Source: Candidatus Multivorans sp. | Lineage (GTDB): Bacteria > Acidobacteriota > Thermoanaerobaculia > Multivoradales > Multivoraceae | DNA: 64,000 nucleotides | Direction: 5' to 3' | NCBI GenBank assembly: GCA_965220845.1 | Contig: CBDCRA010000005.1 | Coordinates: 896,016-960,015 of the forward strand | Part shown: positions 4,110 to 12,331 of the stretch, piece after piece | How the letters are laid out: every line of letters starts with the position of its first letter | Position numbering within the stretch: the stretch's first letter is position 1 | Made by a program: the position numbers and the translations under genes | Notes under the pieces: model-generated | Told to the model about the DNA's origin: nothing | The model's input: the letters and a program-made list of their open reading frames with translations, nothing else | Database searches by the model: none

Positions 4110-4808
4110 TCAGCGTAGGGACGCCGTCACCACCGCGAAGACCAGGCCCGCCAGACCCATCTCCAGCACCTTCCCTGCCGCCCAGTGGATCGCGGCAATG
4201 GCGAACCCGGCTGGTCGGGACACCCGGAACACCGAGGCGGCGCCCAGGCCGAGCAGGAGCAAGGACCAGACGAAGACGAGGGAGCCGATCAGCAGGTCGA
4301 GAATCGCGCCGGGCGCCATTTCGGCTACCTGCCCGATCACGTCGAGGCCGGAGTCCGGTCTCCTGTCGAGGACGCTCCGCTGCATCTCGACGAGGCCGTC
4401 GACCTGGGTGGTTCTCAGCAGCGAGCGGACGACCAGCCCCACGGCGCCGATGAGTCCTACATGGAGGGCCAGCGACAGGCACTGTTCGAACCGCGCCCGA
4501 CCCTTGAGGGCCGCGGCCAGGAGCCGGAGCACTGCCGCCTCGACCAGGAGCGCGAGCGGGATGGCTGCGATGACGAACGACAGCATCCCATAGGGAATCT
4601 CGAGGGGATCACCGATGCTGTCCATCGCATCGGCCAACAGCGACGTCGTCAACAGTACGGCCAGGACTGTCAGGGAGATGCCCAGAGTCAGGCCGGCAAC
4701 CCACGGGTGGTGCTCGCGGATGACGGCGAAGCTCTTCCGCGGAGCGGTGAAGATCCAGATCAGGGCCTTGAACCAGAGGTGGCGGCTCGCCTCCGGTTCT
4801 TCGCCCAT
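4110..4808 (-). CDS. Yip1-like (Yip1/DUF1282 family) polytopic membrane protein
   Basis: 232-aa ORF with 5-6 predicted TM helices. Hydrophobic profile and motifs resemble the Yip1 domain. Last gene of the putative peptide-export operon. Confidence 0.5.
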   Translation of the reverse strand: MGEEPEASRHLWFKALIWIFTAPRKSFAVIREHHPWVAGLTLGISLTVLAVLLTTSLLADAMDSIGDPLEIPYGMLSFVIAAIPLALLVEAAVLRLLAAALKGRARFEQCLSLALHVGLIGAVGLVVRSLLRTTQVDGLVEMQRSVLDRRPDSGLDVIGQVAEMAPGAILDLLIGSLVFVWSLLLLGLGAASVFRVSRPAGFAIAAIHWAAGKVLEMGLAGLVFAVVTASLR

Positions 4809-4853
4809 GAGGGGACTGTATCGACTCGTGATCGAACCGGAGACTCGGCCCGG

Positions 4854-5633
4854 TCAGCTCGGTGTGAGCCGGGCGAAGAGACCGGCCGCCACGGCGGTGA
4901 AGGCCGTCGTCGCTGCCCAGTAGATGGCGGCCAGCAGCCATGCCTTGCGCTGCGGAACCTCGAACACCGCGGCGGCGCCCAGCGCGAGCAGCGCGAGAAA
5001 CCAGATCGTGAACGGGTTGATGCTCGCGTAGACGGCATTGAGCGTCGCGTTGTCGCCGGCCAGCAGCAGGTCGAGTCCCATCGGCGCCCGGAGGTCCAGT
5101 TGCGATCGGATCGCGTCGGTGCCGCGGAGGTGAACGAGAAGGAAGTTGGCCCAGCTCTGAAGATGAGTGATTACGGCCAGGTGGATCATGAGGGCGAGGG
5201 ACTGGACGAATCGGGGACGTCCCTGGAGGGCGATCGCCAGGAGCCACACGAGGACGGTCTGAATCGCGAGTCCGACGGCCACGGAGAGGGGACCGGTGGC
5301 CATCGCCAGCCAACGCCCTGCCGCGGCTGCCTGTTCGAACTGCGCCATCATGGCGTCGACCTGTTCGGGGCTGCCCGGCATCCGTTCCGTCAGTTGGGCC
5401 CGCATGGCCTGGAGGCCCAGCGGCGCCGAGGCAAACGCCAGGGCGGCGTTCCCGGCCAGGACCAGGAGCAGCGTTGCGAGCCATGGGTTGCGGTTCCGGA
5501 TGATCTCGAAGCTCTGCCGCGGCGACCCGAAGAGCCCGAGCAGCGCCGTGAGCCAGGCGCTCCGGCCCCGCGAGCGTCCGCCTCCGGTCCCGGCGTTGCG
5601 TTCGTGGTTGGTGCTGCCTGGATGCTCGGTCAT
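4854..5633 (-). CDS. Yip1-like polytopic membrane protein (second copy)
   Basis: Start ATG 5633 (MTEHPGS...) with AGGAG 6 nt upstream. The start overlaps the stop of the upstream ABC ATPase gene (ATGA coupling). The long N-terminal extension in the track ORF is R-rich and probably not translated. Confidence 0.55.
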   Translation of the reverse strand: MTEHPGSTNHERNAGTGGGRSRGRSAWLTALLGLFGSPRQSFEIIRNRNPWLATLLLVLAGNAALAFASAPLGLQAMRAQLTERMPGSPEQVDAMMAQFEQAAAAGRWLAMATGPLSVAVGLAIQTVLVWLLAIALQGRPRFVQSLALMIHLAVITHLQSWANFLLVHLRGTDAIRSQLDLRAPMGLDLLLAGDNATLNAVYASINPFTIWFLALLALGAAAVFEVPQRKAWLLAAIYWAATTAFTAVAAGLFARLTPS

Positions 5634-6418
5634 GTCGTGCTCCTGTTGCCGATCCAGGAGAGGCGGGAGAACCTCTCGCGCCTGGAGATGCTGAGAATGA
5701 GGTTCTCGAGCCGCCCGGCGCCGTCTTCCCCTTCGGCGGCGGGCAATTCGCGGAACTCCTCCCGGGAGCACGACAGGAGGACCTTGCCGTCCCTGATGAC
5801 GGCGATGTGGGTCGATACGCGCTCGACGTAGTCGAGCATGTGGGATGTGAGGAAGATGGCTGCTCCCTGCTCGGCCATCTGCTGCAGGATCGACATGACG
5901 GTGCGGGCGCTCAGGGCGTCCATCCCCTCGAACGGCTCGTCGAGGAACAGGATTCGCGGTGCGTGAAGGGTCGCCGCGGCGAGGCGGATCTTCTTCCTCA
6001 TGCCGTGGGAGTAGGTCGTGATCGGCCGCTTGGCGGCGTCCTCGAGGTCGAAGACTGCGAGCGCCTCGTCGGTCCGCTGCCCGGCGTCCTCGCGGCCCAG
6101 GCCGTAGATGCGGGCATACGACAGCAGCAGTTCCTCGCCGGTCAGGCTCTCGAACATCACGCTGTGGTCGGGCACGATGCCGAGTTCCTGCTTGAGCTCG
6201 GTGTCGTCGATGTCCATCGGCTTGCCGAGCAGCCGCACCGTGCCCTTCGTCGGTTGCAAGACTCCGGTCAACATCGACCAGGTCGTCGTCTTGCCGGCCC
6301 CGTTGGGGCCGACGAAACCCAGAATCTGCCCCTCCCGGACGTCCAGATCGACGCCGTCGACGACGACGTTTCCTCCGTACGACCGGGTCAGGTTCTCTGC
6401 CTTGATTGCTTCTTCCAT
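5630..6418 (-). CDS. ABC transporter ATP-binding protein, ABC-2 (DrrA/CcmA-like) type
   Basis: Walker A GPNGAGKTT, signature YSHGMRKKIRLA, Walker B ILFLDEP. RBS AAGGA upstream of ATG 6418 (MEEAIKAENLTRSYGG...). Confidence 0.9.
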   Translation of the reverse strand: MEEAIKAENLTRSYGGNVVVDGVDLDVREGQILGFVGPNGAGKTTTWSMLTGVLQPTKGTVRLLGKPMDIDDTELKQELGIVPDHSVMFESLTGEELLLSYARIYGLGREDAGQRTDEALAVFDLEDAAKRPITTYSHGMRKKIRLAAATLHAPRILFLDEPFEGMDALSARTVMSILQQMAEQGAAIFLTSHMLDYVERVSTHIAVIRDGKVLLSCSREEFRELPAAEGEDGAGRLENLILSISRRERFSRLSWIGNRSTT

Positions 6419-6470
6419 CCGTGAGGTGTTCCTTGTGGTTGTAGGGGCAGAGGGGGTTGTGGGGCAGGGG

Positions 6471-10982: not shown

Positions 10983-10992
10983 GTCGGGACCG

Positions 10993-11220
10993 CTAGAAGG
11001 GGAGGGGGATGGGAATGCACTGGTCGGTGGGACCGGGCCATGGGCTCGGGAAAGGCCAAGGAAGCGGGTAGGGCCGGCCCGGTCCGGGAAAGGGCAGGTC
11101 GCTGCAGGGCACCGGGAAGTACCGGGCCGTCTGGGTCGCTTCGCCGACGGTCGGTGTCGCCAGTGCCGCTCCGGCGAGGAACAGGAAGAGGGCGGAAACA
11201 AAGAGAATGCGGAGTTTCAT
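10993..11220 (-). CDS. small secreted Pro-rich peptide A (75 aa, 2 Cys)
   Basis: Strong RBS AAGGAG 8 nt upstream of ATG 11220. Signal MKLRILFVSALFLFLAGAALA, then TPTVGEATQTARYFPVPCSDLPFPGPGRPYPLPWPFPSPWPGPTDQCIPIPLPF. Confidence 0.7.
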   Translation of the reverse strand: MKLRILFVSALFLFLAGAALATPTVGEATQTARYFPVPCSDLPFPGPGRPYPLPWPFPSPWPGPTDQCIPIPLPF

Positions 11221-11235
11221 AGAGGATTATCTCCT

Positions 11236-11838
11236 TCAGGGGTTGTAGGTTGCGGGTGAAACGGACGGGTTTCGTACCGTCCGCGGAATCGGTGGGGGGC
11301 CGCCGGTGAAGCTCAGAACGACGCCGTCCCAGGAGCGGGCGAAGACGCGGGAGCTCATGCGCAGCCGGCCGAGAGAGGGGTCGTCGATGACGAGTTCGTC
11401 GCCGGTGCTGCGGATGACGACGAAGTGGTCGCCGTGGACGTGAGCGATCGCGGGAAGCGGGACCTCGCGGAGCCGATGGACCGGAAGCCGGAGCCCCTGG
11501 CTCGTCACGCCCCGTTCCTCGGCGGCTTTCTTGAGCGCCAGGAGGCTGGTGCCGTCCGGTCCGGTTCCGGTCGCGATCTCGAGCTCGGCGAGCGTCACGT
11601 CCTGGATGCCCCAGTGGTCCAGGACCATCTTCAGGGCCGCCGGACCGCAGTCGGAGCGCCTTTGCTGGCGGACCACCTCGCCCGGGGCGGGCGCCGATGG
11701 GTCGAGCGCGGCGGCCCAGGCGAGCCGGTCCATGGTCGGCCCCAGCGTCCGGGCAGCGACCGTCACGAGACCGGCCGCAACCAGCAGGCCGGCGGCGGCC
11801 GCGTGCGGGGGACGGATCCGGAACCGCTCAGAGCGCAT
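11236..11838 (-). CDS. stand-alone membrane-anchored peptidase C39 (bacteriocin-processing) domain protein
   Basis: Start ATG 11838 (MRSERFRIRPP... then TM helix AAAGLLVAAGLVTVAA). C39 catalytic motif QQRRSDCGPAALKMVLDHWG and downstream His in HVHGDHFVVI. Not fused to an ABC transporter. Confidence 0.8.
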   Translation of the reverse strand: MRSERFRIRPPHAAAAGLLVAAGLVTVAARTLGPTMDRLAWAAALDPSAPAPGEVVRQQRRSDCGPAALKMVLDHWGIQDVTLAELEIATGTGPDGTSLLALKKAAEERGVTSQGLRLPVHRLREVPLPAIAHVHGDHFVVIRSTGDELVIDDPSLGRLRMSSRVFARSWDGVVLSFTGGPPPIPRTVRNPSVSPATYNP

Positions 11839-12331
11839 CGGTTCCGGACTCCAGAAAAGCGCGCCAGGCGGTCTCCGGACGTTCGCCGGTGGCGACCGCG
11901 AGGATTCGGGACTGTTCGTCGACCAGGAACACGAGCGGCACGTGGACCACGCCGAAGCGCCTCGAGACGGAGGCGTCCGGGTCGGCGATGGCGAGAAGGC
12001 CGTCGCCGTTCGCTTCCGGCTCATGGGCGCCGGCGACGACCGCGATCAGGTCGAAGGCCGGATCTTCGGTCCGGTTCAGGCGGCGCAGGGTGGTGATGGT
12101 TCGGTCGCAGTTGCCGCAGCCGGCCCTGGCGAACGTGACTACCCGCAGCCGTCCCGGAGCGGCCGGCAGGGTCTCGCCGTCGGCGAAGCCCGGGAGGCCG
12201 GGGAACGTCGCGCCGACTTCCGGGCGCTGGGCCTGCCGGGCGCGGATTCCGGACTCGAACCAGAGGAGACCTCCGAGGGGGACGAGGACGGCCGCGACGA
12301 CGGCGGCCAGGGCCAGGCGGCGGCGGTTCAT
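11828..12331 (-). CDS. TlpA/ResA-like thiol:disulfide oxidoreductase (thioredoxin fold, CGNC active site), signal-anchored
   Basis: Start ATG 12331 (MNRRRLALAAVVAAVLVPLGGLLWF). CxxC motif AGCGNCDRT. First gene of the transcription unit, after the 12646..12684 terminator. Confidence 0.8.
   Translation of the reverse strand: MNRRRLALAAVVAAVLVPLGGLLWFESGIRARQAQRPEVGATFPGLPGFADGETLPAAPGRLRVVTFARAGCGNCDRTITTLRRLNRTEDPAFDLIAVVAGAHEPEANGDGLLAIADPDASVSRRFGVVHVPLVFLVDEQSRILAVATGERPETAWRAFLESGTDAL

Follow-up and report, generated by a model that had tools for sequence, protein, structure and literature searches.

We describe here an operon in a 64,000-nucleotide (nt) stretch of DNA from a “Candidatus Multivorans” sp. 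(Acidobacteriota, class Thermoanaerobaculia; contig CBDCRA010000005.1, positions 896,016 to 960,015 of the forward strand), which we call the window. Reading its sequence, we predict that the operon serves the production, maturation and self-protection of small, hydrophobic, disulfide-stapled double-glycine (GG) peptides of the class II bacteriocin or microcin type, and we put the probability of this at roughly 0.55. What appears to be new is a bacteriocin- or microcin-like locus with Sec-coupled periplasmic maturation and a new permease family, whereas the chemistry of the C39 peptidase and its GG sites is known from PCATs, the ATP-binding cassette (ABC) transporters that contain a peptidase. 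In the literature we found no described system that combines a stand-alone or periplasmic C39 peptidase, a Sec signal, a thioredoxin, an ABC-2 transporter and Yip1 proteins. An earlier note on this DNA had likewise not recognized the combination as a described system, which stands except for the pairing of Yip1 with an ABC transporter, which is already known from bacteriocin immunity (PMC4887032, PMC10598978, PMC11580447).

The operon occupies 12549-4110 of the minus strand and consists of twelve tightly packed open reading frames (ORFs), which overlap or are separated by short gaps. They are listed here in gene order, preceded by the terminator of the upstream gene (lengths in amino acids, aa; TM, transmembrane; the arrow marks a predicted cut):

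12641-12685, minus strand: intrinsic terminator that ends the upstream SNF2/SWIM helicase gene; perfect stem of 18 bp at about 12645-12685, then UUUU (-43.2 kcal/mol, z = -7.3).
12328-12549, minus strand: conserved 73-aa ORF, first of the operon; no TM segment, no family match.
11828-12331, minus strand: membrane-anchored thioredoxin-fold thiol:disulfide oxidoreductase with a CGNC motif; Pfam Redoxin, 27.2 bits against a cut-off of 26.6.
11236-11838, minus strand: stand-alone, single-pass C39 double-glycine peptidase, 200 aa; Pfam PF03412 Peptidase_C39, E = 1e-30.
10993-11220, minus strand: P1, 75-aa precursor; Sec-type signal peptide (…AGAALA↓TP) ahead of a proline-rich core that holds 2 Cys.
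10806-10982, minus strand: P2, 58-aa precursor; classical 22-aa double-glycine leader (…LPEADLAAVTGG↓), hydrophobic 36-aa core with 2 Cys.
10414-10728, minus strand: P3, 104-aa precursor; Sec-type signal peptide, spacer, GG leader (…TTEMAVLGGG↓AP), core.
10039-10335, minus strand: P4, 98-aa precursor; Sec-type signal or anchor, spacer, GA leader (…LSDQAAEAIQGA↓LAWKWRC), core.
8298-9956, minus strand: permease A, 552 aa; paralogue of permease B.
6471-8060, minus strand: permease B, 529 aa; by its AlphaFold2 (AF2) model a 12-TM, fused double ABC-2 (type V) membrane component.
5630-6418, minus strand: ABC ATPase of the DrrA/ABC-2 type, 262 aa; ABC_tran E = 1.6e-30, TIGR01188 drrA E = 3.5e-63.
4854-5633, minus strand: Yip1/YknW-like polytopic membrane protein a (Yip1a), 259 aa; Pfam Yip1 E = 1.5e-10; its start overlaps the ATPase stop.
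4110-4808, minus strand: Yip1/YknW-like membrane protein b (Yip1b), 232 aa; Pfam Yip1 E = 5.8e-15; 32% identity to Yip1a.

The genes listed by the earlier note are all present at these positions in the high-GC (65-71%) window, and the ten products that we checked are, with the same boundaries, identical to independently called proteins in public collections, none of which has an informative name. The terminator that the note had seen is also there, and it marks where the transcription unit of the peptide operon starts. A promoter scan, which is uninformative for this phylum, returned no sigma-70-type promoter. Our analysis adds several points to that first reading: the Sec-type signals, a peptidase and thioredoxin predicted to face the periplasm, the fused ABC-2 permeases, the 73-aa ORF and a structured element.

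The four precursors are informative in both their leaders and their cores. A Sec-type signal sequence stands at the N-terminus of P1, P3 and P4; P2 has no signal peptide. A cleavage motif of the GG or GA type, with hydrophobic residues at positions -4, -7 and -12, is found in P2, P3 and P4, so that three peptides carry it and not one, as the earlier note had it. Examples are …L(-12)PEADL(-7)AAV(-4)TGG in P2, …L(-12)AMNEL(-7)AQL(-4)TGG in the P3 of the related locus L001 and …L(-12)SGDEL(-7)NNL(-4)VGG in the locus L019. The C39 domains of PCATs recognize GG, GA and GS with hydrophobic residues at these same three positions (PMC10885120). In P3 and P4 some 50 residues precede the site, and the N-terminus has the n, h and c layout of a Sec signal (exemplified by MKLLSSLLVALLLLAGASA↓IS…), and several precursor N-termini have AxA-type sites typical of signal peptidase substrates. 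The P3 and P4 cleavage sites are unambiguous because orthologous sites occur in relatives (LAMNELAQLTGG↓AP, TELAQLTGA↓AS, EMSALTGS↓AP and LSISDQAAAGIHGA↓LAWKWRC); the P3 orthologues read LTGG↓AP, LTGA↓A(S/P) or LTGS↓AP.

The cores in the window and in related loci are hydrophobic, 30-56 residues long and 17-50% Gly plus Ala. The first Cys is found 5-9 residues past the cut and the last one 0-5 residues from the C-terminus, and the number of Cys per core is 2 or 4 in every case. The P3 core is Gly/Ala-rich and cationic with 4 Cys (C…CPVC…C), and the P4 core, hydrophobic and 45 aa long, has one Cys at +7 and another at -2 counted from the C-terminus. The layout of the cores points to a helical hairpin with a disulfide joining its two ends. 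Precursors that we read in eight loci of differing context follow one order, from a Sec-like N-terminus through a GG-type motif to a Gly/Ala-rich core with Cys near both ends. The small ORFs read in the distant loci repeat this order (an example is MKRIKFFKVLSVASLLLMAVMIASQVNSASAPLSGDELNNLVGG↓ELTTGC…SALCG), apart from a truncated gene call on L021, a short contig. Like P3 and P4, the GG peptides of L012-L020 and L022-L030 have Sec-type N-termini ahead of the leader; P2 is the window's exception, with orthologues in L005, L006, L007, L012, L013 and L015-L017. Judged by orthologues or analogues of the same design in every related locus examined, the small ORFs are not chance ORFs, and the class is conserved, as the earlier note had asked of it. 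Neither the window's four peptides nor six precursors from other loci match a known peptide family in Pfam or NCBIfam.

P1 has a strong Shine-Dalgarno sequence (GAAGGAG). Peptides of the P1 type occur in most clade loci; wherever they were detected, their gene comes first after C39 and its ribosome-binding site is the strongest. Past the signal peptide they have a proline-rich, PFPxPWP-like segment with 2-6 Cys, and no GG site (window 10993-11220; L001 8812-9120; L013 8134-8451); the window's P1 is without a spacer of about 30 residues that is present in relatives. In two loci, precursors with unrelated cores have a near-identical signal peptide and spacer (MKLRIAFLSALFLF..AGA..ATPT.GEAPDP…): L012 5214-5573 and 4625-4936, and L013 8720-9079 and 8134-8451. 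These shared N-termini suggest modular shuffling of export modules between precursor genes.

The peptidase passes the test that the earlier note had set for it beforehand, with a strong match to the C39 profile. Its best solved relatives, all true double-glycine proteases, are LahT150, PCAT1 and ComA, with which the catalytic Gln, Cys and His positions align (QxxxxxC and the His are kept). It is a separate protein, as the note had proposed: in all of about 100 C39 homologue clusters the protein is stand-alone and 115-330 aa long. One TM-like segment precedes the catalytic domain in each of the 85 homologues with a long enough N-terminus. The 15 residues before this segment contain on average 4.2 Lys or Arg, compared with 2.3 after it, and the N side is the richer one in 67 of the 85. 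Because of this bias around the anchor, the positive-inside rule predicts an N-terminus inside and a catalytic domain in the periplasm.

A fusion protein bears on the same question. P0157 (L023 6589-7572, 327 aa) consists of an anchor, a Redoxin domain (CPYC) and a C39 domain, with no hydrophobic segment between the two domains. Since it joins them behind a single anchor, the Redoxin and C39 activities must share one compartment. After P0157 come, in L023, a precursor whose 2-Cys core is hydrophilic, a 237-aa protein with weak similarity to LolA, and Yip1, with no ABC transporter; this locus may represent a pared-down form of the system that serves a soluble peptide. In L024, the C39 ORF reads into the first precursor (7001-7876; P0151, found in at least 96 collection blocks), which gives a 291-aa fusion of C39 and peptide. 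In L027, from a sister lineage, the C39 and the first precursor are separate, overlapping genes. P0151 is either a real fusion or a common effect of gene calling or frameshift.

These observations bear on the scheme of the earlier note, in which a split protease works with a dedicated ABC exporter. A tethered, cytoplasmic C39 would remove the whole N-terminal region of the precursor, with its hydrophobic segment, as a long leader that takes the precursor to the membrane, and the ABC-2/Yip1 machine would export the core, in effect a PCAT split into parts. The textbook 22-aa leader of P2, free of any signal sequence, speaks for such a scheme, and C39 is cytoplasmic in all solved systems (PMC10885120). 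We nevertheless consider it unlikely. It has to contend with the positive-inside bias of the C39 anchor, with a Redoxin-C39 fusion that has one N-terminal anchor and no TM segment between its domains, with an anchored thioredoxin-fold protein and Cys pairs that point to an oxidizing compartment, and with precursor N-termini that have n, h and c regions and, in several cases, AxA-type sites. Moreover, L023 has a protease, a peptide and Yip1 yet no ABC transporter. The Sec-type N-termini, the paired Cys and the predicted C39 topology together favor the order of the model preferred here, export first and processing after. The label “RiPP-like” (for peptides made on ribosomes and then post-translationally modified) had also been too strong, the sole modification enzyme in the locus being the thiol-disulfide oxidoreductase.

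The oxidoreductase, first described as TlpA-like, has the CGNC motif and an anchor (RRR followed by a hydrophobic segment at the N-terminus). The family assignment itself is not firm: the Redoxin score is marginal, those of Thioredoxin_2 and AhpC-TSA are weaker, and the ResA, DsbE and MauD models give 13-14 bits against cut-offs of 123-189. Counterparts are found in L020 and L024-L030, some of them matching AhpC-TSA or Redoxin, and L023 has one as part of the C39 fusion. Redoxins of the anchored, TlpA-like kind are located outside the cytoplasm, and from its sequence this one is predicted to face the periplasm.

Oxidoreductases of the TlpA/ResA/DsbE-like anchored type are typically reductants. 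A variant of our model, which changes the role of this protein and nothing else, would therefore have it keep the catalytic Cys of a periplasmic C39 reduced and leave the peptide disulfides alone. The tight coupling of the two proteins, seen in overlapping genes and in the fusion, fits enzyme maintenance equally well. The even number of Cys in every core, at conserved end positions, speaks for peptide disulfides instead. The CxxC motifs also vary among loci (CGNC, CSHC, CGVC, CRVC, CRRC), the CPYC of the fusion being of the oxidizing DsbA/glutaredoxin type, and for FapD, a periplasmic C39, no requirement for a dedicated reductant is reported (PMC5557850). We regard the reductant role as somewhat unlikely.

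The transporter genes agree with the ABC-2-type transporter with unusually large permeases that had been read from the sequence. The two permeases are paralogous (29% identity over 475 residues, E = 4e-44) and have no Pfam match. The AF2 model of permease B, built on a 36-sequence alignment that includes distant homologues, has a mean predicted local distance difference test (pLDDT) of 84.9 and a predicted template modeling (pTM) score of 0.79; the modeled membrane domain has the type V (ABCG/Wzm/ABC-2) fold, two fused ABC-2 domains resembling Rv1217c and PmtD. The model of permease A (13-sequence alignment, pLDDT 44.1) is unusable, and this protein presumably has the same fold of 12 TM segments and two fused domains. 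A Foldseek search of the permease model against the PDB gave nothing significant, and at the sequence level there are sub-threshold ABC2_membrane_5 matches in distant permease members only. An alignment of the N-terminal half with the C-terminal half (hhalign) is not significant as evidence of internal duplication and covers a short stretch at the “LP” loop of each half. Each large permease probably provides both membrane domains of a transporter and would work with two copies of the single ATPase; the permease genes, of which a locus has one to three, would be alternative specificity subunits sharing it. A permease of this fused type is present in every locus (permease B appears split or frameshifted in L006 and L018), and no homologue of permease B was found on plasmids.

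The ATPase gene is better conserved than any other in the locus (88-96% identity across the clade); its TIGR01188 drrA match falls under the model's own cut-off and is a family-level assignment only. Both Yip1-like proteins, which the earlier note had recognized, match Pfam Yip1, and their NCBIfam YknW_fam scores (68.6 and 36.7 bits) are below the cut-off of 110. Yip1a has counterparts in L022, L023 and L024-L030. Yip1b is undetected, or found as a fragment only, in L003, L005, L006, L009, L010 and L014, and since it is missing from several relatives it is probably dispensable. In L005 it is cleanly missing from a cassette otherwise 99-100% identical to that of the window. Neither the operon nor the related loci contain a gene of the membrane-fusion-protein or HlyD type.

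Type V transporters typically extract hydrophobic substrates from the membrane. ABC transporters that have Yip1-family proteins as partners give protection against SDP and against bacteriocins that are circular or leaderless (PMC4887032, PMC10598978, PMC11580447). Given how poorly the split PCAT fits, the ABC/Yip1 part looks, by analogy with Pmt, LanFEG and YknWXYZ, more like a membrane-clearing immunity or release pump than a primary exporter.

The association of these genes recurs well beyond the window. Close relatives found by genome scan all belong to Acidobacteriota, class Thermoanaerobaculia (“Ca. Multivorans” and allied metagenome-assembled genomes, MAGs), which we refer to as the clade. 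A word-based search with permease A returned 15 relatives only, and an exhaustive HMMER profile search found 51 representatives of the permease family among 1.84 billion proteins. At least six further genomic contexts and lineages contain the module, and each has small peptides of its own. Distant permease members lie in unrelated neighborhoods with GC contents of 52-68%, among the same kinds of partner; small GG peptides and an ABC ATPase adjoin them in L019, L020, L021, L022, L024-L029 and L030, and the presence of C39, thioredoxin and Yip1 genes varies by locus:

L019: C39, two peptides, permease, ATPase.
L020: peptides, Redoxin, C39, permease, ATPase.
L022: peptides, permease, ATPase, Yip1.
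L024-L029: thioredoxin, C39, two peptides, 487-aa permease, ATPase, Yip1.
L030: full set.

The L024 permease matches the family profile with 97% probability, and L030 is the single locus returned by a metagenome scan with a narrower permease alignment. This recurrence bears out the proposal of the earlier note that the locus is dedicated to maturing and transporting small double-glycine Cys peptides. It also leaves very little room for the idea that the ABC-2/Yip1 genes encode a housekeeping exporter, e.g., of polysaccharide or lipid, that lies next to C39 and the peptides by chance. Across unrelated neighborhoods and GC contents, the permease has small GG peptides beside it wherever a context includes upstream sequence, and in most of these contexts a stand-alone C39 as well; the genes overlap or abut in one operon; and no glycosyltransferase or polysaccharide genes are near the locus. 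We consider chance adjacency largely refuted and very improbable.

Comparison of close relatives reveals a variable segment within the operon. Between L007 and the window, protein identity is 91% for C39, 96% for the ATPase and 88% for Yip1a, and falls to 54-64% for P1-P4 and 42-44% for permease B. At the nucleotide level, the flanks are 85-97% identical and the ATPase gene 96-97%, compared with 60-75% for the peptide genes and 50-62% for permease B. L005 shows the reverse: across the cassette, P1 through permease B, identity to the window is 99-100%, compared with 94-95% for the thioredoxin and C39 genes and 91-97% for the ATPase and Yip1a genes. We read this pattern as the footprint of cassette exchange by recombination within conserved flanks. 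The type and number of peptides differ between loci, with several paralogous peptides in each, and the permease copy number ranges from one to three (three in L007). Permease A and P3/P4 occur together in 7 clade loci and are both absent from 7 with other peptide types. By analogy, conserved machinery around a hypervariable, recombining region of peptides and partners suggests a toxin-immunity locus.

The peptides might, on the other hand, not be weapons at all. They could be pheromones, small proteins resident in the envelope, or components of a surface or biofilm, which the ABC/Yip1 machine inserts, extracts or recycles. The locus holds a fixed position in every clade genome and has no outer-membrane export component, and GG-leader peptides include pheromones. 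FapD, in addition, is a periplasmic C39 that acts in amyloid biogenesis and not in toxin production (PMC5557850). Such roles are harder to square with extreme divergence and cassette exchange that are confined to the peptide and permease genes beside near-identical flanks, with several paralogous peptides per locus whose type and number change, with Gly/Ala-rich hydrophobic cores like those of pore-forming class II bacteriocins and microcins, and with the ties of Yip1 and ABC transporters to toxin immunity (PMC4887032, PMC11580447). We think a non-weapon role quite unlikely.

The locus also has a structured element of about 190-250 nt, present in two copies in the clade loci that span both positions (L007: 11652-11902 and 17557-17747):

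8057-8305, minus strand: copy 1, from the permease A stop to the permease B start (237-nt gap).
3873-4060, minus strand: diverged copy 2, following the last Yip1 gene, upstream of the one at 2698-3813; nhmmer E = 6e-26.

Copy 1 is near-invariant in 13 loci, where the flanking permease proteins are just 41-57% identical. Its consensus is rod-like with 66 pairs, in which 97.5% of cells are paired, compared with about 42% when the partners are slid; the changes are one-sided (G-C/G-U/A-U) and keep the pairing. The two copies share 32 pairs, and one hairpin has AU-to-CG compensation in 8 of 22 sequences. An Rfam search over 3800-13000 (E ≤ 1) returned one match, a chance one on the terminator, and none for the element. 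An ORF over the inter-permease element (8048-8305) was considered as a gene and ruled out: relatives have 1-nt and 8-nt indels, and the changes keep base pairs. The element may be an RNA leader, a processing site or stabilizer, or a recombination anchor for cassette exchange.

It is instructive to compare the locus with known systems. The PCAT systems, also called AMS systems for maturation and secretion through ABC transporters (LagD, ComA, CvaB, LahT, PCAT1), serve class II bacteriocins, class II microcins and some RiPPs. They share with it the C39 catalytic residues, the GG/GA/GS motif with hydrophobic -4, -7 and -12, several precursor genes per locus, and small, hydrophobic, Gly-rich products that are sometimes disulfide-bonded. 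In a PCAT, however, the peptidase is an N-terminal cytoplasmic domain fused to a 6-TM type IV exporter whose nucleotide-binding domain is C-terminal. Here it is a separate 200-aa single-pass protein, predicted to be periplasmic, and the permease and ATPase are encoded by separate genes. The transporter is of type V (ABC-2) with Yip1 proteins, most precursors have a Sec-type signal ahead of the leader (P2 alone fits the leader-first form), and there is no membrane-fusion protein or TolC partner.

The pump may be compared with PmtABCD, the phenol-soluble-modulin exporter, and with the LanFEG/BcrAB pumps, which likewise handle amphipathic or hydrophobic peptides and protect the membrane of the producer. 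It differs from them in that two membrane domains are fused into one protein of about 530 aa, as in Rv1217c, that one to three permeases appear to share one ATPase, and that its genes lie beside those for Yip1 partners, a protease and a thioredoxin. With Rv1217c-Rv1218c, a mycobacterial ABC system for drug efflux, there is no detectable sequence relationship, and that system is without peptide, protease or Yip1 partners. YknWXYZ, which protects Bacillus subtilis against SDP, and As-48EFGH/Mr10EFGH likewise pair a Yip1-family protein with an ABC transporter, in their case one that defends against a hydrophobic peptide toxin. SDP itself is exported by Sec and processed outside the cytoplasm. It contains one disulfide bond (PMC4887032). 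In contrast to our locus, these systems have a MacB/FtsX-type permease and a membrane-fusion protein and have neither C39 nor GG leaders, and the YknW_fam scores found here are under the cut-off. In short, the pump resembles Pmt, LanFEG and Rv1217c in its modeled fold and YknWXYZ in its Yip1 partner, and is a member of none of them.

For the peptidase, the sole precedent for a periplasmic C39 is FapD, which is documented in amyloid biogenesis (PMC5557850). The FapD of the Pseudomonas Fap amyloid system is, as predicted here, a stand-alone C39 in the periplasm with Sec-exported substrates. It is not a close relative: the score against NF058616 C39_FapD is 44.5 bits (cut-off 330), no Fap genes are at the locus, and FapD substrates are without the canonical GG leaders that the peptides here have. 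The pneumococcal blp locus is fixed in position, and its bacteriocin and immunity region, hypervariable and recombining, is framed by conserved genes for processing and transport. Our locus shares with it a fixed chromosomal place and a hypervariable middle, an analogy of population genetics; blp belongs to another phylum and has a PCAT exporter, no Sec signals and no periplasm to cross.

Several observations weigh against the interpretation put forward here. The predicted topology of the C39 and thioredoxin proteins draws on the positive-inside rule and one fusion protein, and the thioredoxin could instead hold the catalytic Cys of C39 reduced. P1 has no GG site. The P2-type leader, with no signal sequence, is unexplained by a strictly periplasmic protease unless the ABC pump exports P2. 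The locus has no outer-membrane component, and its host is presumably diderm like Acidobacteriota. The association of permease A with P3 and P4 could be a single gain or loss event. Finally, a fixed chromosomal position across the clade is less typical of accessory toxin islands, though pneumococcal blp is alike in this respect.

Throughout the clade, the locus is bordered by the SNF2 gene on one side and by a conserved 365-aa gene on the other. The SNF2-family helicase (about 1300 aa) is encoded at 12775-16725 on the minus strand. In the window, 2698-3813 (minus strand) encodes a secreted 371-aa protein with no family match, 83-93% identical across the clade, which has a shorter paralogue close by in relatives; it is directly downstream of copy 2 of the element and might therefore be co-regulated. 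A DUF6152-type protein (1739-2677, plus strand) is another clade-wide neighbor. The 73-aa ORF at the head of the operon, called as a gene in public data, overlaps the thioredoxin start with its stop by 4 nt (ATGA). Its product is basic, contains …ALEARLTRAFHMLDAPSAPLVSML… and has no match in Pfam, NCBIfam or PADLOC. It is present in all clade loci at 36-97% identity (tblastn) and is missing where the system occurs in its distant forms; it could encode a regulator, or the stretch could be just a conserved leader region. Among the PADLOC models of defense systems, there are generic ATPase-domain matches to the ABC ATPase and none to the other nine proteins. The HXS periplasmic anti-phage system was considered and ruled out, since it depends on radical SAM enzymes and is unrelated.

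It is tempting to assemble these parts into a mechanism. Most precursors, made of a Sec-type signal, a spacer, a GG/GA/GS leader and a core, would be inserted or exported by Sec. The anchored C39, with its intact active site and predicted periplasmic domain, would then cut after the GG-type motif, which is canonical in the sites seen, and free the core. The anchored CxxC thioredoxin-fold protein would form or proof-read the disulfides that join the first and last Cys, giving a stapled helical hairpin. A type V ABC machine of two DrrA-like ATPase copies, one 12-TM permease with two fused ABC-2 domains and one or more Yip1/YknW-like accessory proteins would extract the membrane-active products from the inner membrane of the producer, for immunity, release or both, by analogy with PmtCD, LanFEG and YknWXYZ. 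Alternative permeases would be matched to particular peptide sets, and P2-type peptides may reach the periplasm via the pump. The peptide and permease segment would form a fast-evolving, recombining cassette between conserved flanks, allowing toxin and immunity to diversify. In its broadest form, this would be an unrecognized two-step route for double-glycine peptides in bacteria with a periplasm, in which Sec delivers an inactive pro-peptide, a periplasmic C39 and a thioredoxin activate and staple it, and a new family of fused type V permeases with Yip1 serves to extract particular peptides or to give immunity against them, with exchangeable cassettes that may be governed by a new RNA element. 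We offer this broadest form tentatively, at somewhat less than even odds.

Double-glycine systems are taught as one design, in which a cytoplasmic C39 domain is fused to the exporter of the peptide. If our reading is true, GG-leader chemistry has been re-used on the far side of the membrane and leader cleavage has been uncoupled from ABC export, and genome mining by PCATs or by leader-first precursors would miss such peptides. The end-to-end disulfide staple of a hydrophobic hairpin would be a simple alternative to backbone cyclization, and a natural stand-alone GG protease, probably with a soluble domain, together with its partner oxidoreductase, would be usable as tools. The permeases would constitute a new, very small family of 12-TM ABC-2 proteins with a peptide-linked role. 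For the organisms themselves, the locus would give a view on antagonism among uncultivated Acidobacteriota, including lineages that, from the isolate names of their MAGs, are apparently associated with sponges.

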